A DNA stretch of 39,297 nt from an uncultured Clostridium sp. (GTDB lineage Bacteria; Bacillota; Clostridia; Christensenellales; CAG-138). The DNA is taken from contig CAYPXV010000003.1 in the NCBI GenBank assembly GCA_964414925.1, forward strand, positions 1 through 39,297. The letters run 5' to 3'. Positions 6,952 through 39,297 of the stretch are shown piece by piece. Position 1 is the first letter of the stretch; every line of letters starts with the position of its first letter. The position numbers and the translations under genes are program-made. The notes beneath the pieces were generated by a model. That model was given only the letters and a program-made list of their open reading frames with translations, did no database searches and had not been told where the DNA came from.

Positions 6952-7332
6952 ATGGGAAATCTTAAAATAAATAGGGGAAGTAACACCCAAAAGGACGGCT
7001 TTAAGGCAGAGACAATGGTTAAATGGTATCTTTTCTTCCGAGGCTATAGGCTTTTGGAAAAGAATTATACCGTCGGACATAAGGAAATCGATTTGATAAT
7101 GAGAAAAAAGGATACAATTTTCTTTATTGAAGTCAAAGGTAGAAGAAAAATTGATGAAAGATTTCCGCCTAGGATGAGTGTAGACAGAAGAAAACAATTG
7201 AATATAATTGCAGCTGCTAAGATCTATCTGGCAAAAAATAAATTGAGGCGTGTTTATGTAAGCTTTGATGTTGCCGAAGTGGATTTGGATAAGAAACGGA
7301 TTATTTATATTGAAAATGCCTTTACGGAGTAA
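6952..7332 (+). CDS. YraN family (UPF0102) endonuclease-like protein
   Basis: The pattern G...AE...YL...GY.LL.KNY..GHKEIDLI....FIEVKGR is typical of UPF0102. Conserved position after rnhB. Confidence 0.85.
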   Translation: MGNLKINRGSNTQKDGFKAETMVKWYLFFRGYRLLEKNYTVGHKEIDLIMRKKDTIFFIEVKGRRKIDERFPPRMSVDRRKQLNIIAAAKIYLAKNKLRRVYVSFDVAEVDLDKKRIIYIENAFTE

Positions 7333-7416
7333 GATGATAATTGCTTTTAAATTCGACACTTAATCAAATCAAACTTTTAGTCGATTATCTGTGCGTAGAA
7401 TAAGATAAATATTGTC

Positions 7417-7445
7417 TTGACACGAATTTTGTATTGTGCTATACT
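7417..7445 (+). promoter_or_regulatory. Promoter of the riboswitch-controlled locus (TTGACA-17-TGcTATACT)
   Basis: Consensus -35 and an extended -10, read directly. The predicted TSS of about 7452 is the 5' end of the riboswitch. Confidence 0.6.
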
Positions 7446-7451
7446 TGCGCT

Positions 7452-7680
7452 GTAACGAAGGAACGGTTGCCGTGCGATTTTTCGTAGGCTTAAAAGGGAA
7501 TGCGGTTAAAGGCCGCAGCAGTCCCCGCTACTGTATCCGGTGACGAAATTGCTATAACCACTTCGCTTTATGCGTGGGAAGGTGCATTGAGTAGATTGAC
7601 CCGGGAGCCAGGAGACCTGCCGTACTTTCGCAATGGTGGTTCTCGGGAGATAGGCGACCTAAGGTGTGCATAGTGATACG
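7452..7680 (+). promoter_or_regulatory. Cobalamin (B12) riboswitch aptamer
   Basis: The conserved core AAAAGGGAAtGCGGTtAAaGgCCGCaGCaGtCCCCGCtACTGT lies at 7492-7534. The B12 box AGCCAGGAGACCTGCC lies at 7606-7621. Both match the Rfam RF00174 consensus from memory. Confidence 0.9.
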
Positions 7681-7709
7681 AGAACTGCATTTTATGCAGT
7701 TCTTTTTGT
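7681..7709 (+). terminator. Riboswitch expression-platform terminator
   Basis: AGAACTGCA (7681-7689) pairs with TGCAGTTCT (7695-7703), followed by TTTTTGTT. Confidence 0.8.
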
Positions 7710-7783
7710 TGCGTCTTTTTCCGCTTGCTTCCGACACCGTGTGATTGCAGTCACAAATAATTTTTGTTCGGAGGTTAAGCGAA

Positions 7784-8806
7784 ATGAAAAACTGCAAAAA
7801 ATTGATTGCGATTATTATGGTCGCAGCACTTATGTTGTCCTGTGTCGCTGCTATGGCGCAGGTTGTACCGACGTATCCCGAAGTTCCCGACGGATATGAC
7901 GGATTCGTAACCATTTCGGTTTCGGCAGCCACCATAGGCTGGGGATACTTGGTTACACCGATGCTCGTTCCCGTACATAACGGAGAAAGCGTTGCACAAG
8001 CAACGGTTCGTCTGTTCGACACACTTAGTATCGGCTATATAGCGGGTTCCATGGAGAATTTCTATCTCAGCAATATTTCATGCCAGAATTGCGTGGACGG
8101 AGTTGCTCCCAATGTCCCGAGTTACTTAATGGAACAGCTTGAGCTGTACCCCGGTTGGGCAGAAGAAAATTACGGATACTCATATGGCGAATGGACAGGA
8201 ACCGAAAATGGAAACGGTATGTTGGGTGAAGGTGACTTCAGTGATTTCGCAGGCTGGATGATAGCGGAAAATAATGTTTCACTTCCCGTTGGTGCAGGTT
8301 CTTATTCCGTACAGGTAGGTTGTTCTTATCAGTGGGGATTTACCGTTTACGGATGGGGAATGGATCTCGGTTGGAGCAACGGTTGGGGTTCTTTCCCGAT
8401 ATTCGATAACCCCGCAGAAGGCGTTAACCGCTCCGAAGCTGAAAAAGCAGTTGCCATGATTTTATCGGATGAAACATTATCACCCAAAGTTGAAGAAGGT
8501 GGTGCGGCATATACCGAGTTCGCAAGCTTGAAATCCGCTCTTGAGATCATTTCTTCAAGTCAGGAACAGATAGACGACTGCCTTGCTCAATTATTGAATG
8601 CACTTGAAGACAACGCCTTGTTGCTCGGCGATGTTAACGGTGACGGTGCCGTTAATATGCAGGATGCACAATTGGTTTTGAGACATTCGATGGGCTTAAT
8701 GCAACTTTCTGACGAAGCACTTGCCGTCGCCGACGTTAACGCAGACGGAAACATCAACTCCGCAGATGCAACTCTTATTGTCAGAATTGCACTTGGTCTT
8801 GTTTGA
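7784..8806 (+). CDS. Secreted DUF4430-like protein with a C-terminal type I dockerin
   Basis: GGAGG RBS and a signal peptide MKNCKKLIAIIMVAALMLSCVAAMA/Q. The central region aligns by eye with the DUF4430 lipoprotein at 10207 (NGESVAQATVRLF vs EGESVYDVLVREC; AGWMIAENNVSLPVGAGSYSV...WGFTVYGWGMDLG vs SGWTYCVNSVFPNYGCSNYFL...FHYTCDLGRDVG). The C-terminus has two dockerin Ca-binding repeats, DVNGDGAVNMQDAQLVLR and DVNADGNINSADATLIVR. Confidence 0.8.
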   Translation: MKNCKKLIAIIMVAALMLSCVAAMAQVVPTYPEVPDGYDGFVTISVSAATIGWGYLVTPMLVPVHNGESVAQATVRLFDTLSIGYIAGSMENFYLSNISCQNCVDGVAPNVPSYLMEQLELYPGWAEENYGYSYGEWTGTENGNGMLGEGDFSDFAGWMIAENNVSLPVGAGSYSVQVGCSYQWGFTVYGWGMDLGWSNGWGSFPIFDNPAEGVNRSEAEKAVAMILSDETLSPKVEEGGAAYTEFASLKSALEIISSSQEQIDDCLAQLLNALEDNALLLGDVNGDGAVNMQDAQLVLRHSMGLMQLSDEALAVADVNADGNINSADATLIVRIALGLV

Positions 8807-8818
8807 TAAAAGTTTGTT

Positions 8819-8856
8819 CCTATGCGGTGAATTGCTTTCACTGCATAGGTTTTATT
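8819..8856 (+). terminator. Strong intrinsic terminator/attenuator hairpin inside the riboswitch-controlled locus
   Basis: A 13-bp stem (8819-8831 pairs with 8837-8849, one G-U) with loop TTGCT, followed by TTTTATTGTTT. Confidence 0.75.
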
Positions 8857-8863
8857 GTTTACT

Positions 8864-10210
8864 ATGCTGAAAAAGTTTTCTAAGATTATAATAGCTTTCG
8901 TCCTGCTTCTGTCATTCTTGCTTTGCGTAACGGTCAGTTTTGCCGATAAAGCGGAATACACTTCCGAGCTTGACGCAACTCTTACCAGACTTAAAGGTTC
9001 AAAACCGCAGTTCGGTTCGATAGGCGGTGAATGGAAGGTCTTTGCGCTTGCAAGGAGCGGTCGCATTGATAAAGATTCAAAGTTTGTTTCCGATTATCTT
9101 TCTTCAATAGAAGATATGCTCAGGAATAATGGAGATCCTAAACTTGACCCGAGAAAGCCGAGTGAGAATTCAAGACTCATAATTGCTTTGTCAAGCCTGG
9201 GTTATGATGCAACCGATGTCGCCGGTTTTGACTTGACTCAGCCACTTAAAGAAATCGACTTTGTCCGTAAGCAGGGTATAACAGGTGTTATATATGCGCT
9301 CATTGCTCTCGATTGTAAAAGCGAATATGCGACAACCTCGTATAAAAAACAACTCGTTGATTTTATTGTAAATGCGGAAATTAACGGTGGTGGATGGGCG
9401 ATGGGCGGCAATGTGCCCGATCCCGATATTACCGCTGCGGCAATATACGCTATTGCCGACTATTCATCTGCTAAATCTGCGGTTAATCGAGGTGTAAATA
9501 TCCTTTCGGAAATCCAATGCGATAACGGTGCTTTCCAAAGCTATGGCAATATCAATTCCGAAAGTTGCTCACAGGTTCTTGTAGCTTTGAGTACGGTCGG
9601 AATAGATGCATCGTCGGATTCGAGATTTATTAAAAACGGTTGTTCATTACTTGATGCACTGCTCTCATTCTTTACCGGTGACGGCTTTGCACATCTGTAT
9701 GGCGGTTCGGTTAACCAGATGGCAAGCGAGCAAGCAGCGTATGCGTTATGTGCTTACAACAGAATGGTAAAACATAAAACCAATCTGTACGACATGTCCG
9801 ATGTCTGGAGCGCATCTTCACCAACTCCGACTAAGACGCCGAAACCGACCGCAACACTTAAACCGACAGCGACTCCGATAGTGACTTCGACTCCGACAGC
9901 GCCCCCCGCCTCAACTCCTGTTGAGACAACAAGACTTGACAGTAATACCGAGAAGCCTTCGCTTACACCGTCGGTTGATTCTACATCAACACCCGAAGCT
10001 ACATTCGAATTTGTGACGGAAACGATCACAACTGATGAAGAAACGCCGTCACCGACAGCGCAAACCGATACGGTTGAGCCGACTGTTATTACAACGGAAG
10101 AACCTGTCGGCGGAAAGGAAGCAAATGCAAAATGGCTCTTGCCGCTGTGTTTGATTGCTGCCGTTTTGGTAGGTATTACGGTGTTTGTTTCGATTAGGAG
10201 GAAATCTTGA
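8864..10210 (+). CDS. Cell-surface alpha/alpha-toroid (prenyltransferase/terpene-cyclase-like repeat) protein with a Pro/Thr linker and a C-terminal TM anchor
   Basis: Signal peptide MLKKFSKIIIAFVLLLSFLLCVTVSFA. Repeats such as NGGGWAMGGNVPDPDITAAAIYAI and QCDNGAFQSYGNINSESCSQVLVAL are typical of squalene-cyclase/prenyltransferase-type toroids. The PT/ST-rich linker lies at about nt 9815-10110. The terminal WLLPLCLIAAVLVGITVFVSIRRKS is a TM helix with a basic tail and no LPXTG. I prefer the ATG at 8864 to the ORF-track TTG at 8855, but no obvious SD precedes it. Confidence 0.75.
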   Translation: MLKKFSKIIIAFVLLLSFLLCVTVSFADKAEYTSELDATLTRLKGSKPQFGSIGGEWKVFALARSGRIDKDSKFVSDYLSSIEDMLRNNGDPKLDPRKPSENSRLIIALSSLGYDATDVAGFDLTQPLKEIDFVRKQGITGVIYALIALDCKSEYATTSYKKQLVDFIVNAEINGGGWAMGGNVPDPDITAAAIYAIADYSSAKSAVNRGVNILSEIQCDNGAFQSYGNINSESCSQVLVALSTVGIDASSDSRFIKNGCSLLDALLSFFTGDGFAHLYGGSVNQMASEQAAYALCAYNRMVKHKTNLYDMSDVWSASSPTPTKTPKPTATLKPTATPIVTSTPTAPPASTPVETTRLDSNTEKPSLTPSVDSTSTPEATFEFVTETITTDEETPSPTAQTDTVEPTVITTEEPVGGKEANAKWLLPLCLIAAVLVGITVFVSIRRKS

Positions 10211-10695
10211 AAAGAATTTCTTGCTTGATATTAACAATCTTTTTCTTGTTTGCATGCTTAACCGCTTGTGATGTAGGAAAAGAAGAAAACGGTCTTACCT
10301 GCACTCTATATATCGAATGTAAGACAGCACTGAACTATGAGGAACTGGACCCCGAAATTAGGGAAATAATCCCGGATGACGGAATTATTATTCAACAAAG
10401 CACCGTTGCTTTTGATGAAGGAGAGTCCGTTTATGATGTTCTCGTCAGAGAATGTAAAGAAAGAGGAATACACATGGAGGCATCATATACCCCGGTGTAT
10501 AACAGTGCTTATATAGAAGGCATCAATAACCTCTATGAGTTTGATTGCGGAAGCTTAAGCGGATGGACGTATTGTGTTAATTCCGTCTTTCCGAATTACG
10601 GATGCAGTAATTACTTTCTTTCTGACGGAGACTGCATAGAATTTCACTACACTTGCGACTTAGGTCGTGATGTCGGTTGTGTTTTTGAGGAGTAA
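10207..10695 (+). CDS. DUF4430-domain lipoprotein (putative corrinoid-binding)
   Basis: TTG start 5 nt after AGGAGG, overlapping the upstream TGA. The lipobox is L-T-A-C (Cys21). The body matches DUF4430, including GWTYCVNSVFPNYGCSNYFLSDGDCIEFHYT. Confidence 0.8.
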   Translation: MKRISCLILTIFFLFACLTACDVGKEENGLTCTLYIECKTALNYEELDPEIREIIPDDGIIIQQSTVAFDEGESVYDVLVRECKERGIHMEASYTPVYNSAYIEGINNLYEFDCGSLSGWTYCVNSVFPNYGCSNYFLSDGDCIEFHYTCDLGRDVGCVFEE

Positions 10696-10703
10696 AAGTA
10701 AGT

Positions 10704-11585
10704 ATGAGACGAGATGCATTTGATGATGTACATCCCTTTATTGCGTTTGCTTTTTTCGCTTACGCAATTTTAGTGACGACTCTTTTTATGCATCCCGTCT
10801 TTATTATCGCTTCATTCCTTATCGGGATTAGCTGGTCTTTTATCCTTGTCGGTAGAAAAACATTGAACTTACTGGTTAAGTTTATTCTGCCGGTTACAAT
10901 TATTATTGCGATTATTAATCCTTTGTTTAATCATAAGGGTTTGACTATTCTTTTTTATCTTAAAGATAATCCGATAACACTTGAATCCATTATCTATGCC
11001 CTCGTAGCATCTGCAATGTTTGCATCCGTCATTATTTGGTTTTCATGCTTTAATGAAATAATCAAAAGTGAAAAGATAATCTACATATTCGGTAAAACCT
11101 TGCCGTCGATTTCCTTGCTGATTATGCTTGTACTCAGATTCGTACCGCTTTATAAACGCCAAGCTCAAAAGATAGCTTTATCTATGCGTGCAAGAGGGTG
11201 CGATACGGAAGGCGGCAACGTCATCAAGCGTGCCAAAACAGGTTTGAACATACTTCTGGCTCTTATAACCTGGGGGCTTGAAAGCTCTGTAACTACAGCC
11301 GACTCCATGAGGTCAAGAGGTCATGGATTGCATGGCAGAACTTTTTATTCCGATTATCGTTTGGATAAGAGAGATATCGTAATTGTGATTTGTATGCTGT
11401 TAGGTGGGATAACCGCAGTATACGGCATTGCAACAGGCTCCGTGTTCGTTAAGTTCTATCCGCTGTTTAAAATGAATGAATGGGACTTCACAACACTCCT
11501 TTATTCTGCAATACATGCGCTTGTTCTTTTTATTCCGATTATTTTAAATGTTATTGAGGCTACAAGATGGAAATACTCAAAATAA
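10704..11585 (+). CDS. ecfT: ECF transporter transmembrane (T) component, EcfT/CbiQ family
   Basis: Polytopic membrane protein with the two coupling-helix Arg motifs MRARG and MRSRG, in the spacing typical of EcfT/CbiQ. Confidence 0.85.
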   Translation: MRRDAFDDVHPFIAFAFFAYAILVTTLFMHPVFIIASFLIGISWSFILVGRKTLNLLVKFILPVTIIIAIINPLFNHKGLTILFYLKDNPITLESIIYALVASAMFASVIIWFSCFNEIIKSEKIIYIFGKTLPSISLLIMLVLRFVPLYKRQAQKIALSMRARGCDTEGGNVIKRAKTGLNILLALITWGLESSVTTADSMRSRGHGLHGRTFYSDYRLDKRDIVIVICMLLGGITAVYGIATGSVFVKFYPLFKMNEWDFTTLLYSAIHALVLFIPIILNVIEATRWKYSK

Positions 11586-13216
11586 ACGATTTAAGTTTTT
11601 CATATTCAACCGAAAAAAACGGCAGACAGGCTCTTTCACATATAAACCTTTCCATAGACGAAGGTCAGTTCGTGCTTGTATGCGGCTCGTCGGGATGCGG
11701 TAAATCGACTTTACTTAAACAGATTAAGCCTTCGTTAAGACCCTATGGTAAGCTTGACGGTTCGATATTGCTTGACGAAAAAAACGTGGATGAATTGTCC
11801 TTCCGCCAACAATCGGAATTAATCGGCTTTGTGATGCAGGATCCCGAGATGCAGATAGTTACGGATAAGGTCTTTCATGAACTTGCCTTCGGTTTGGAAA
11901 ATTTGGGAGTAGATAATACTCAAATGCATATTCGCATTGCGGAAACGGTTAATTATTTCGGGATTCAGAACATAATTAACAATGATACTTCGGAATTATC
12001 AGGTGGGCAAAAACAAATCGTCTGCCTGGCGGGTATTATGGCAATGCAGCCTAAAATTCTGCTGTTGGATGAACCCACTTCTCAGCTTGACCCGATTGCG
12101 GCAAGTGAATTTATTTCCGCATTAAAGCGAATTAACGAGGAATTGGGGACTACAATTATCATTACAGAACATAGATATGAGAGCCTGTTTCCTGTGGCAG
12201 ACAGAGTGGTTTTTATGGAAAACGGACAAATAATCTCCGACAGTAAACCGCAAAATTCGGTAATGAAGCTTATTAATAAGCCCGAATACATAGAGATATT
12301 GCCGACAACATTAAGATTGTATGCAGCAACATCCGATTTAACGGGCGATGCTCCGTTAACGGTGCGTGATGGAAGAAATTATTTGCGTACTTTCGCCAAA
12401 ACCGAGGCTAAATCATGTGCATTAAAAATAAAAAACCCGGATAAACAAACCCCGATTCTTTCGGCAAAAGATGTTTATTTCAAATATGATGCCTCAGGAA
12501 AAGACGTACTGAGAAGTTTTAATTTCGATGTTTTTCAGGGAGAACTTATGTGCATTATAGGTGCAAACGGTTCGGGGAAAACAACCGCAATAATGACAGC
12601 GTCCGGTTTATACACTCCGTACAGAGGTAAGGTCAGTTTCAAAGGTAAGAATATGCGTACCTACAAGAAAACGGAACTTTACGGAAAACAGATTGCTCTG
12701 CTGGTTCAAAATCCGATTTGTACCTTTGTTCATGATACGGTGATTGAGGAACTTGAAGATGTGTGTAAGAATTTCTCGATACCAAAACAAAGACTGAATG
12801 AAGTTATAGAACTGATGGAGCTTGAGAATATTCTTGACAAGCATCCTTATGACGTTAGCGGAGGAGAAATTCAGCGTGCGGCTATAGCGGCTTTGCTTTT
12901 GCCGAGTCCGGAAGTTATCTTCTTGGATGAAGCAACAAAGGGAATGGATGGTTTTTTTAAGAAGAAATTCGGTGCTTTTTTAAAGAAAATAACTGCCGCC
13001 GGTACTGCCGTCGTTTTGGTTTCCCATGATATAGAGTTTTGTGCGGAATATGCGGATAGGTGCGCAATGTTTTTTGACGGAACAATTACCGCACAGGGAC
13101 TACCTGAACAAACTTTACTGAATAACAGCTTCTATACGACAACCGCAAATAGGTTATCTCGAGAAGTTATTTCTGCGGTTTTGACTACCGAGGAATTAAT
13201 CGATAGTGTGAAGTGA
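11567..13216 (+). CDS. Fused tandem ECF/ABC ATPase (EcfA-EcfA')
   Basis: Two nucleotide-binding domains. NBD1 has GSSGCGKST, LSGGQKQ and LLLDEPTS. NBD2 has GANGSGKTT, VSGGEIQ and IFLDEATK. It overlaps the ecfT end by 19 nt. Confidence 0.9.
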   Translation: MEILKINDLSFSYSTEKNGRQALSHINLSIDEGQFVLVCGSSGCGKSTLLKQIKPSLRPYGKLDGSILLDEKNVDELSFRQQSELIGFVMQDPEMQIVTDKVFHELAFGLENLGVDNTQMHIRIAETVNYFGIQNIINNDTSELSGGQKQIVCLAGIMAMQPKILLLDEPTSQLDPIAASEFISALKRINEELGTTIIITEHRYESLFPVADRVVFMENGQIISDSKPQNSVMKLINKPEYIEILPTTLRLYAATSDLTGDAPLTVRDGRNYLRTFAKTEAKSCALKIKNPDKQTPILSAKDVYFKYDASGKDVLRSFNFDVFQGELMCIIGANGSGKTTAIMTASGLYTPYRGKVSFKGKNMRTYKKTELYGKQIALLVQNPICTFVHDTVIEELEDVCKNFSIPKQRLNEVIELMELENILDKHPYDVSGGEIQRAAIAALLLPSPEVIFLDEATKGMDGFFKKKFGAFLKKITAAGTAVVLVSHDIEFCAEYADRCAMFFDGTITAQGLPEQTLLNNSFYTTTANRLSREVISAVLTTEELIDSVK

Positions 13217-13959
13217 GCATTATGAACGGCAATAAATTTTTTAAGCTGATACAAAATAATAAAAACAGATTGATATCGACGTTGCTATTTGTCATAATTG
13301 TTCCGTGCTTAATAGCACTCGGAATAGTTGTTTGGGATGATAGGCATTACTATATAGTCTCCGCAATTATTATAATAGCTGCGCTCGTTCCGTTTACTCT
13401 GCTTTTTGAAAAAAGAAAACCTAAAACACGAGAATTGGTTCTTATTGCCGTCATGACAACTCTGGGCGTAGTAGGTAGGGTTGCTTTTTATATGTTGCCC
13501 CAGTTTAAACCTGTCACTGCAATAGTCATTATTACGGGTGCTGCATTTGGAGGCGAGGCAGGTTTTGTGACAGGTGCATTGACTGCTTTCATTTCCAATA
13601 TGTTTTTCGGTCAAGGTCCGTGGACTCCCTGGCAAATGTTTGCATTCGGAATAATCGGATTTTTATCAGGATTGATTTTTTATAAGAAATCGGAAAAGAT
13701 AAATATCATGCAGTTGGTAGTGTTCGGAGCATTGGCAACGTTGATTATTTACGGAGCGATTATGGACACTTCATCCCTTTTTTCGATGAGCGATGAGGTG
13801 TCTTTTAAGGCATTATTGAGCCTTTTTGCTTCGGGTTTTATAATGAATGTAATTCATGCTCTTTCAACCGTAGTCTTTTTATTGCTTTTATCTAAGCCGC
13901 TACTGAAAAAGCTTCAAAGGATAAAAATTAAATACGGAATATTGAGCCCAAACGATTAA
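13213..13959 (+). CDS. ECF transporter substrate-capture (S) component, candidate corrinoid-specific (CbrT-like role)
   Basis: A small membrane protein of 6-7 TM helices, with an S-component-like core (GRVAFYMLPQFKPVTAIVIITGAAFG...GPWTPWQMFAFG). It is translationally coupled to the ATPase (GTG 13213 overlaps the TGA; alternative ATG at 13222). Substrate specificity is inferred only from the riboswitch context. Confidence 0.65.
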   Translation: MSIMNGNKFFKLIQNNKNRLISTLLFVIIVPCLIALGIVVWDDRHYYIVSAIIIIAALVPFTLLFEKRKPKTRELVLIAVMTTLGVVGRVAFYMLPQFKPVTAIVIITGAAFGGEAGFVTGALTAFISNMFFGQGPWTPWQMFAFGIIGFLSGLIFYKKSEKINIMQLVVFGALATLIIYGAIMDTSSLFSMSDEVSFKALLSLFASGFIMNVIHALSTVVFLLLLSKPLLKKLQRIKIKYGILSPND

Positions 13960-30336: not shown

Positions 30337-31263
30337 ATGTCGTATAAATCGAGAAGAGATGAATTTTATCCGAATGAATTTGACTATGTGAAACTGATGA
30401 CACTGTTTACAGTTCCGCTTATTGTAACTTCTCCTTTGCATATAAGGAATGGTCGGGAATTTGGTGACGAGATGTTTAAAGCATTGTCGGAACAGTTTGT
30501 CAGAACTCAACCGCCTTTGAGAGATAAAAACAGCTTTTTGCATATGCTTTTCAATTGCATCCCCGGAATTATCCTTATCGAGAATAATTTTGATGGGATT
30601 GATATGATTGAATGTATAAAAGCTTTAAAAACAGGCGAAGTTTGTAAAAATACCGAGTTCTACATTGTTGCCAGGCGAACCAATAAAACCCTCGAAGCAA
30701 AGTGCAAAGAAAGTCCTTATGTCAGAGGTGTAATTTATGCGAGCGCACCAATCAAAGAATCGGTCAACAGAATCGCTAAAGAATATCGCGAAATGCTCAA
30801 TGAGCGTGTAAGGTTGAATAAGACACTCGATAATCTTCCGGATCAAAGATCACCGTACCTGGTGTTCATGGATTCCGAAAAAGAAGGTAAATTATTCAGT
30901 GGAAACTTGATTAATGACTTGCTTAGACCGTTGGGCTTTGACAAAAAGCAAGTCGGAACGCAGTATACTTGCACCATGATTGCTTTGGGTCTTTTGGGCT
31001 GTGCATCTTCGATGAATGAGATGTATGAATACATCGCTCTTATCGAATGTACCACTCCTCAAATTGTTGAGAAAACTATAAGGTATTCTATCGAACAAGC
31101 ATGGACTCGTCCGACATCCGCTATGCAGATGGTTGTTTTCGGCAATACCATCGATCCGGAAAAGGGTAAGCCCACCAATGCCGAGTTCTTATCGACAGTA
31201 GTGCAGCATATACGCACACATAACTACAACAATATGTTGGTTTGCGGCGATATGGACGATTAA
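30337..31263 (+). CDS. Spo0A C-terminal (Spo0A_C) DNA-binding domain protein with a degenerate receiver-like N-terminus
   Basis: The C-terminal about 110 aa align with B. subtilis Spo0A. EKTIRYSIEQAWTRP matches ERAIRHAIEVAWSRG, and EKGKPTNAEFLSTVVQHIR matches TKAKPTNSEFIAMVADKLR. The N-terminal half is only receiver-like (PGIILIENNFDG vs PDVLVLDIIMPHLDG). Confidence 0.75.
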   Translation: MSYKSRRDEFYPNEFDYVKLMTLFTVPLIVTSPLHIRNGREFGDEMFKALSEQFVRTQPPLRDKNSFLHMLFNCIPGIILIENNFDGIDMIECIKALKTGEVCKNTEFYIVARRTNKTLEAKCKESPYVRGVIYASAPIKESVNRIAKEYREMLNERVRLNKTLDNLPDQRSPYLVFMDSEKEGKLFSGNLINDLLRPLGFDKKQVGTQYTCTMIALGLLGCASSMNEMYEYIALIECTTPQIVEKTIRYSIEQAWTRPTSAMQMVVFGNTIDPEKGKPTNAEFLSTVVQHIRTHNYNNMLVCGDMDD

Positions 31264-39212: not shown

Positions 39213-39297
39213 GGACGGGTTCCCGAGCGGCCAAAGGGAGCGGACTGTAAATCCGTTGTCACAGACTACGATGGTTCGAATCCATCCCCGTCCACCA
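39213..39297 (+). tRNA. tRNA-Tyr (anticodon GTA), class II with a long variable arm and encoded CCA
   Basis: GGACGGG...CCCGTCC acceptor stem. Anticodon stem-loop GCGGA-CTGTAAA-TCCGT. Long variable arm and a GGTTCGAATCC T-loop. It ends in CCA at the window edge. Confidence 0.93.

Follow-up and report, generated by a model that had tools for sequence, protein, structure and literature searches.

A cobalamin riboswitch operon encoding three surface proteins and a dedicated ECF transporter: a predicted transcobalamin-like route of corrinoid uptake in Clostridia

This study deals with a cluster of six same-strand genes, g1–g6, found in a 39,297-nucleotide stretch of DNA of an uncultured Clostridium sp. 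(contig CAYPXV010000003.1, positions 1 to 39,297; hereafter the window). All six genes are read on the forward strand behind a cobalamin (B12) riboswitch. Products of g1, g2 and g3 are secreted proteins with three different anchors, while g4–g6 encode the parts that make up a transporter of the energy-coupling factor (ECF) class. A previous reading of this DNA, made from its letters only (the sequence-only reading), had predicted here a B12-riboswitch-gated system of corrinoid capture and uptake. According to the data presented below the locus is probably a B12-repressed system of corrinoid capture and import, in which g1–g3 compose a transcobalamin-like binder that feeds a dedicated, CbrT-like ECF importer.

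Regulatory region and gene order

The top-scoring promoter-like site of the region is a sigma-70-type sequence TTGACA-17-TATACT with a TG extension (positions 7417–7445, 11 of 12 matches), the end of which lies 2 nt 5′ of a cobalamin riboswitch aptamer (7447–7638). The aptamer corresponds to the Rfam covariance model RF00174 over all its positions (1–189 of 189), reaches 120.8 bits where the gathering score is 31.5 (E 5.7e-30), and contains in this alignment the B12 box AGCCAGGAGACCUGCC. It is followed by the terminator of the expression platform, a hairpin with an 11-bp stem and a T run (7680–7712). The hairpin itself (7680–7704) has together with its flanks a folding energy of −17.4 kcal/mol (z −4.6), and the segment GGTTCTCG at 7640–7647, which is complementary to its 5′ arm, could be an antiterminator. 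Thus, the consensus promoter, the cobalamin riboswitch and its own terminator, all recognised in the sequence-only reading, are indeed present, and the comparison with RF00174 that it had proposed gave a full-length match. At high intracellular concentrations of cobalamin the aptamer would bind this ligand and the 7680–7704 hairpin would stop transcription, while scarcity of B12 would allow read-through into the operon.

The first gene, g1 (7784–8806, 340 aa), starts with ATG 7784 preceded by GGAGG and not with TTG 7745 of the open reading frame list. A spacer of 57 nt separates it from g2 (8864–10210, 448 aa from ATG 8864), which overlaps by 4 nt with g3 (10207–10695, 162 aa, ribosome-binding site AGGAGG). 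After an 8-nt gap follows the gene of EcfT (10704–11585), which shares 19 nt with the gene of a fused EcfA-EcfA′ ATPase (11567–13216), and the latter overlaps by 4 nt with the gene of the S component (13213–13959). EcfT, a protein with about six hydrophobic segments, belongs to the CbiQ family (PF02361, 31.6 bits at a cut-off of 25). The fused ATPase has two ABC_tran domains and matches TIGR04520 (341.8 bits, cut-off 315). Two families recognise the S component: PF07155 gives 55.1 bits at a cut-off of 26.7, and PF12822 gives 41.2 bits at a cut-off of 30.7. Both the coordinates and the family scores agree, therefore, with the six same-strand genes and the overlapping or nearly overlapping frames of EcfT, double ATPase and S component described previously. 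With its genes for the T component, the double ATPase and the S component lying side by side and overlapping, the module shows the dedicated (group I) organisation of ECF transporters.

Cobalt transporters of the CbiMNQO type are likewise regulated by B12 riboswitches, and one could suppose that the module imports cobalt, the secreted proteins binding something else. This supposition finds some ground in the affiliation of the T component with the Pfam family named CbiQ and in the matches of the ATPase to cbiO models. However, the names CbiQ and CbiO span EcfT and EcfA proteins generally, CbiM and CbiN are absent, and the S component falls into the vitamin-type families PF07155/PF12822 and matches CbrT. 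Transport of cobalt is thus practically ruled out by the missing CbiM/CbiN and by the vitamin-type S component, and the probability left to it is very low.

The only sequence in the PDB matched by the S component is 6fnp_A, that is ECF-CbrT (E 7.1e-11, 45.5 bits, aa 68–242); no curated CbrT model appears among its NCBIfam matches, and the folT and riboflavin S-component models stay below their cut-offs. For ECF-CbrT of L. delbrueckii (6FNP) transport of both cobalamin and cobinamide was demonstrated (Santos et al. 2018, PMC5997447; the name CbrT was given by Rodionov et al. 2009, as cited in that paper). This importer is of the same ECF type and includes the closest solved relative of the S component encoded here. 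It belongs, however, to group II, uses a shared general ECF module and has no extracellular binding proteins, whereas the locus combines a dedicated module with fused ATPases. The low similarity of the two S components (45.5 bits) is accompanied by a difference at the N-terminus, where the protein of the locus has an extension of about 65 aa (13213–13420, aa 1–67) with two extra hydrophobic helices that are absent in CbrT 6FNP. Lengths of its relatives (230–253 aa) suggest that this extension is conserved.

Domains of the three secreted proteins

The product of g1 begins with a signal peptide (approximately aa 1–25), after which come a divergent DUF4430/transcobalamin-beta-like domain with an insert of about 45 aa (approximately aa 38–215), a helical module (approximately aa 217–274) and a type I dockerin (aa 281–333, nt 8624–8782). 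The dockerin is detected by PF00404 with 47.2 bits at a cut-off of 22.9, has two Ca-binding repeats, DVNGDGAVNMQDA and DVNADGNINSADA, and is superimposed by Foldseek on the C. thermocellum dockerin 2ccl_B with a template modelling (TM) score of 0.91 and a root-mean-square deviation of 1.0. The N-terminal 250 residues do not reach the threshold of PF14478 (DUF4430) and fit only the C-terminal half of this model (15.4 versus 23.8 bits), yet weak DUF4430 matches were registered in 12 of 19 members of the g1 family. Profile-profile comparison of the g1 and g3 families by hhalign gave a probability of 96.6% and E 4.9e-10, the alignment being broken by the g1 insert of about 45 residues. The AlphaFold model of g1 (predicted local distance difference test, pLDDT, 86) matches the human transcobalamin beta domain 5no0/5np4 (apo, cyanocobalamin-bound) with TM scores of 0.72–0.73, as well as whole transcobalamin, intrinsic factor and haptocorrin, and also 3u7z, a structure of DUF4430. 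Family profiles and the structural model therefore support the description of the g1 N-domain as a divergent DUF4430 subfamily, which we named beta′, and the earlier view of g1 as a DUF4430-like protein with a signal peptide and a dockerin holds in spite of the sub-threshold Pfam score. Longer forms of g1 exist: in one relative (L027, 3563–5410) the open frame containing g1 has 615 codons, and another protein (P0259) is 569 aa long, with the beta′ module matched in two stretches and the dockerin at its end.

The product of g2 also has a signal peptide. It is followed by an alpha/alpha toroid confidently modelled by AlphaFold (approximately aa 30–315; pLDDT of the model 80.7), a disordered Pro/Thr-rich stalk of about 105 residues (approximately aa 317–421) and a C-terminal transmembrane helix (aa 425–447); within the 115 residues at aa 311–425 there are 29 threonines and 17 prolines. 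All four features had been assigned to g2 from its sequence, and they are confirmed here. In searches of PDB sequences neither g2 nor g3 nor a g3-family profile found anything above the level of chance, and comparison of folds was therefore needed. By means of Foldseek the transcobalamin chains 7qbg_C, 4zrp_B and 8ixu were found for g2 at E of about 5e-3 with TMq of 0.37–0.42. At the sequence level g2 has no match to PF01122 (Cobalamin_bind) at E ≤ 0.01, and phmmer search against the PDB revealed no transcobalamin. A role of terpene cyclase or prenyltransferase (PF13243, PF00432) was considered for g2 and rejected, as the matches are sub-threshold, the DxDD motif is lacking and the protein is carried outside the cell by its stalk, so that only the fold is shared. 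Instead of DxDD the g2 family conserves the motif DPDxT (D186, P187, D188 and T190, each at least 90%).

The third protein, g3, is a DUF4430 lipoprotein, as previously proposed: its domain at aa 72–149 scores 55.5 bits with PF14478 (threshold 23.8), and a lipobox LTAC with Cys21 can be read by eye in its sequence. Thus, from the family assignments that the sequence-only reading had put forward for verification PF14478 reached its threshold in g3 and not in g1, while g2 gave no PF01122 match at E ≤ 0.01 and stayed below the threshold of SQHop_cyclase. The extracellular domain of g3 has five cysteines invariant in its family (C32, C38, C114, C133 and C150 in the numbering of the window protein). 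Their odd number implies that one thiol is possibly free, and disulfides, metal binding or ligation of cobalt, by analogy with BtuM, are candidate roles.

Based on these data one can assume that g2 is the counterpart of the alpha domain of transcobalamin, g3 represents the canonical DUF4430 beta domain, and g1 contributes a divergent beta′ variant equipped with the insert and the helical module. Transcobalamin, intrinsic factor and haptocorrin are likewise built of an alpha/alpha toroid and a beta-grasp domain of the DUF4430 type. These mammalian carriers, however, are single soluble chains in which alpha precedes beta, whereas the locus encodes three anchored chains in the order beta′-alpha-beta with two beta-type domains.

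Conservation, fusion and anchoring

A survey of genomes, one per GTDB species, revealed 33 related loci. They lie mainly in metagenome-assembled genomes of rumen and human gut that bear the titles Clostridia, Christensenellaceae or Clostridium sp. CAG:138. Clostridium accounts for seven of the loci, among them those of C. bornimense N41 and Clostridium sp. MSJ-8, which are cultured, and these seven represent a fused type described below. In the other 26 species, uncultured Clostridia of gut and rumen with split-type loci, the order riboswitch-g1-g2-g3 is invariant, and the anchors are also kept: a dockerin in g1, a Pro/Thr stalk with a C-terminal transmembrane helix in g2, and a small g3. In 32 of the 33 species-level loci the g1 homologue has a cobalamin-class riboswitch directly upstream; this riboswitch belongs to RF00174 in close relatives and to RF01482 (adenosylcobalamin, AdoCbl) in four Clostridium loci. 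In roughly half of the loci genes of the ECF transporter come after the trio. In two Christensenella-like loci g2 and g3 are separated by an additional gene (L028, 3441–4223; L030, 3691–4494). Its product has no globular domain and is composed only of a signal peptide, a long stalk of Pro/Thr and a transmembrane helix at the C-terminus.

In all seven Clostridium loci beta′ and toroid are parts of a single protein of about 890 aa. The one from C. bornimense is 30% identical to g1 over aa 2–275 (E 9e-28) and 41% identical to g2 over aa 48–314 (E 2e-63), and has a dockerin at its end. Exhaustive HMMER search with the g1 N-domain gave 656 representative clusters at E ≤ 1e-3, 138 of them at E ≤ 1e-10. 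Many of these relatives are surface proteins, up to 2,750 aa long, with dockerin, SLH or ChW repeats among their anchors. When three home-made profiles (beta′, toroid and g3-type beta) were mapped on the 147 best representatives, 83 of the 147 showed beta′ only, 23 had exactly beta′-toroid, and in 17 all three modules followed in the order beta′, toroid, beta in one chain, so that modules of fully fused chains are arranged as the genes are, g1-g2-g3. One such chain is P0300 (1104 aa), with beta′ at 31–247, toroid at 256–561 and beta at 779–896 followed by SLH. Its gene (locus L044) comes immediately after a riboswitch of the RF00174 class (110.7 bits), and 3′ of it there are genes for another protein of the SLH-toroid type, for a beta domain that is anchored in the membrane through a long linker, and for EcfT, EcfAA′ and S. 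Since the same modules are joined in the same order in one chain, which is evidence of the Rosetta-stone kind, g1, g2 and g3 probably act together as one functional unit, like the domains of transcobalamin. A fusion of DUF4430, toroid, Pro/Thr stalk and transmembrane helix (P0135; L045, 7001–8644) was also noticed inside an apparent mobile element with genes of Toprim/DUF3991, DpnD-PcfM, a PemK toxin with pemK RNA and RloB/AAA, and there are no riboswitch or ECF genes nearby.

The fused-type loci also bear on the dockerin of g1. In all seven the beta′-toroid gene and g3 have between them a gene whose product, about 215 aa long, bears a transmembrane anchor at its N-terminus (L037, 4375–5031; L036, 10677–11420; L038, 5959–6633; L040–L043, at about 10.6–11.4 kb). 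Each of the seven proteins matches PF00963 (Cohesin), the best with E 2.4e-8, and the only PDB entries matched by the profile of this family at E ≤ 1 (5nrm_A, 5nrk_A, 4uyp_A and 5lxv_A, with E from 0.002 to 0.29) are cohesin-dockerin or scaffoldin structures. To judge from these matches, the fused-type operons of Clostridium therefore appear to carry their own membrane-anchored cohesin-dockerin pair. Anchors are also swapped between homologues. In a word-indexed search the g1 family comprised 18 clusters, and dockerin was present in 17 of them; the exception, P0004, has a Pro/Thr stalk and a transmembrane helix, and there are g2 homologues with dockerin or SLH. Domain composition thus points to dockerin, SLH, ChW and the Pro/Thr-transmembrane element as interchangeable anchors. 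Because of these swaps and of the in-operon cohesin-dockerin pairs of Clostridium, the dockerin of g1 is indicated to be a cell-surface anchor with no link to a cellulosome. In the bacterium studied here g1 would be held through its dockerin by a cohesin partner encoded outside the window, g2 by the stalk of about 105 Pro/Thr-rich residues together with the transmembrane anchor, and g3 by the lipid anchor.

Three anchors of different reach gave rise to the idea of a spatial relay, in which the dockerin protein is outermost, the stalked one takes the middle and the lipoprotein is innermost, so that corrinoid is passed inward through the wall without formation of a static complex. The three types of anchor are real and their pattern is kept across split-type loci; the locus has two beta-type domains per one toroid, and L044 combines a complete wall-anchored SLH binder with a second SLH-toroid and a membrane-anchored beta on a long linker. 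At the same time the existence of single-polypeptide relatives means that differing distances are not required for function, and the anchors are interchangeable (Pro/Thr-transmembrane in P0004, dockerin or SLH in g2 homologues). Such a relay is, therefore, conceivable, though rather doubtful.

The spacer between g1 and g2 is filled by an element missing from the sequence-only description, a stem-loop with 13 bp followed by TTTTATTGTTT (8819–8849, forward strand), which is a candidate partial terminator or mRNA-stabilising element. Its folding energy is −20.7 kcal/mol as compared with a mean of −7.5 for shuffled sequence (z −5.7), and UUUUAUUGUUU comes behind it. There is no second copy of this hairpin in the window. 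In the relative with 92% identity (L008) it is kept with an altered loop and a weaker T run, while in L006 and L001 it is absent and g1 abuts g2. Non-homologous strong hairpins occupy the same spacer in 11 other loci (among them L004, 9020–9206; L021; L026, 6843–6898; L029–L034), that is in 12 of 31 split-type loci overall; several have T runs, and several, such as those of L026 and L033, resemble textbook terminators. The ECF genes are adjacent in all 10 assessable hairpin-bearing loci and in 5 of 14 loci without a hairpin, the loci being phylogenetically non-independent. No second riboswitch was found in the long g1-g2 spacers of L004, L021, L029 and L032. Hairpins are known to follow the genes of binding proteins in operons of ABC importers, for instance between malE and malF, where they raise the relative expression of the first gene. 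By analogy with them the hairpin after g1 would probably make g1 more abundant than the downstream products, and the recurrence of spacer hairpins suggests tuning of g1 expression relative to that of the genes behind it.

If the 8819–8849 hairpin were an efficient terminator, the riboswitch would gate g1 only, and g2–g6 would be transcribed from another promoter or barely expressed. The length and energy of the stem with UUUUAUUGUUU behind it, the similar hairpins of the 11 other loci and the lack of an obvious Shine-Dalgarno sequence in front of g2 speak for this possibility. However, 57 nt are too short for a promoter, promoter-like sites within g1 occur at the level of chance, the T run is weaker in the closest relative, g1 and g2 abut or overlap in 19 related loci, and an expression-raising hairpin after the first gene is a known design of operons. 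Exclusive gating of g1 is, hence, improbable.

Predicted corrinoid capture and its counterparts

The function that we consider probable is B12-repressed capture and import of corrinoids. The prediction of the sequence-only reading is upheld by a riboswitch of two different classes that is almost universal in front of the genes, by the relationship of the S component to CbrT, and by the presence of two transcobalamin-beta-like proteins next to an alpha/alpha toroid resembling the alpha domain of transcobalamin. Since beta′, toroid and beta form one polypeptide in other Firmicutes, g1–g3 would be expected to assemble at the cell surface with the corrinoid sandwiched between the toroid and a beta-type domain. 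The CbrT-like S component would then receive the captured corrinoid, and EcfT/EcfA-A′ would import it at the expense of ATP. The riboswitch, the identities of domains and anchors, the conserved gene order and the fused architectures are shown here, and the role of the g1-g2 hairpin, the assembly of the three proteins, the hand-off to the S component and the binding of corrinoid are inferred.

Several observations weigh against this interpretation. The best fold matches of g2 are terpene cyclases and beta subunits of prenyltransferases, slightly above transcobalamin, and g2 stays below every Pfam threshold (15.5 versus 26.1 bits for PF13243). Cohesin was absent, by search with a hidden Markov model of the in-operon cohesins, from the window, the remaining genes of which are housekeeping, and from all split-type loci. 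The 8819–8849 hairpin might partly uncouple g2–g6 from the riboswitch. One locus (L013, approximately 7000–8000) has the trio with no cobalamin riboswitch upstream that could be detected by Rfam or by an nhmmer profile. In 9 assessable related species or loci the trio has no adjacent ECF module, and it is therefore the set of secreted proteins rather than the transporter that makes the constant unit. Finally, in the searchable literature no bacterial protein of the transcobalamin-like set has been shown to bind corrinoid, and the single homologous operon examined by experiment, lsa1836–1840 of L. sakei, was assigned to heme on genetic evidence.

This operon (Verplaetse et al., bioRxiv 10.1101/864751) encodes an S component, ATPases, a T component and beta-like and alpha-like subunits, and its deletion impaired heme uptake. 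As in our locus, the toroid and DUF4430 extracellular subunits are split and share one transcription unit with the S, T and ATPase genes; the L. sakei operon differs in having five genes, a single beta subunit, no dockerin protein and no riboswitch reported. Import of heme or of another tetrapyrrole has to be weighed for this reason, and it has in its favour the restoration of heme accumulation, impaired in the five-gene deletion, by complementation, as well as the similar shape of tetrapyrroles. Against it stand the cobalamin riboswitch, found on the operon in 32 of 33 species, the preprint on L. sakei, which makes no mention of a riboswitch, and the lack of competition between hemin and B12 in ECF-CbrT (PMC5997447). 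Because the cobalamin riboswitch is nearly universal, uptake of heme is very unlikely here, although no other alternative has experiments behind it.

A system of similar composition had also been foreseen long ago. Burroughs, Balaji, Iyer and Aravind (2007, PMC1796856), who defined the SLBB superfamily, described in the relevant passages of their paper bacterial transcobalamin-like SLBB domains as secreted, in many cases joined on either side to an alpha/alpha toroid, and encoded in operons that often contain a second paralogous SLBB protein and are linked to CbiO/CbiQ; their carriers are organisms without B12 synthesis, and both scavenging of B12 and a bacterial origin of the animal carriers were predicted. 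Secreted SLBB/DUF4430 and toroid domains, either joined or encoded next to each other, the second SLBB paralogue and the CbiO/CbiQ-type genes are common to those operons and our locus. The work of 2007 is a prediction only, and in these passages there is no dockerin, no beta′ insert or helical module, no colinear order, no riboswitch and no splitting over three anchors. Because of this prediction and of the L. sakei operon, the statement of the sequence-only reading that no characterised system has such a composition has to be withdrawn for the five-gene core. The searchable literature contains nothing on the beta′ subfamily, the colinear three-module architecture, dockerin/cohesin anchoring or riboswitch control of this gene set. 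New here are the conservation of riboswitch-g1-g2-g3 in 26 species, the fusions in the same order, and the interchangeable anchors together with the in-operon membrane cohesin.

Competition for corrinoids is far less understood in Gram-positive gut bacteria than for BtuG/BtuB of Bacteroides. The surface lipoproteins BtuG and BtuH of the latter are encoded in B12-riboswitch loci and capture corrinoids ahead of the transporter, just as is proposed here for g1–g3; they differ in their unrelated folds (BtuG is a beta-propeller), in their location on the Gram-negative outer membrane, and in serving the TonB-dependent BtuB with no ECF transporter. One may speculate that in g1–g3 the toroid, sitting on a wall-spanning stalk, alternates between the outer beta′ and the inner beta and ferries corrinoid to the ECF module, which would make the three proteins a three-piece transcobalamin mounted on the surface of non-cellulolytic gut and rumen Clostridia by a cohesin-dockerin pair of the cellulosome type and controlled by a B12 riboswitch. 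The chances of such a mechanism are not high. If true, it would be a Gram-positive counterpart of BtuG/BtuB and, for the ancestor of the B12 carriers of animals, a living model.

The availability of split, pairwise-fused and fully fused forms with swappable anchors and cobalamin riboswitches makes the prediction of 2007 directly testable. Corrinoid binding and hand-off, if demonstrated, would establish a major route of B12 capture in Clostridia of the human gut and rumen. The same demonstration would clarify the choice between heme and B12 for the ECF family concerned, would be relevant to the proposal that transcobalamin and intrinsic factor of animals came from bacteria, and would add a non-cellulosomal, vitamin-regulated use to those of cohesin-dockerin pairs.

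Two further features of the window deserve mention. A 308-aa protein encoded at 30337–31263 has a Spo0A C-terminal domain at aa 192–292 and no match to a receiver domain at E ≤ 1e-5; the source organism probably forms spores. The far end of the window (39213–39294, 53.7 bits) is taken by a tRNA gene, the variable arm of which is long and the anticodon loop of which reads GUA (Tyr) in the Rfam alignment.

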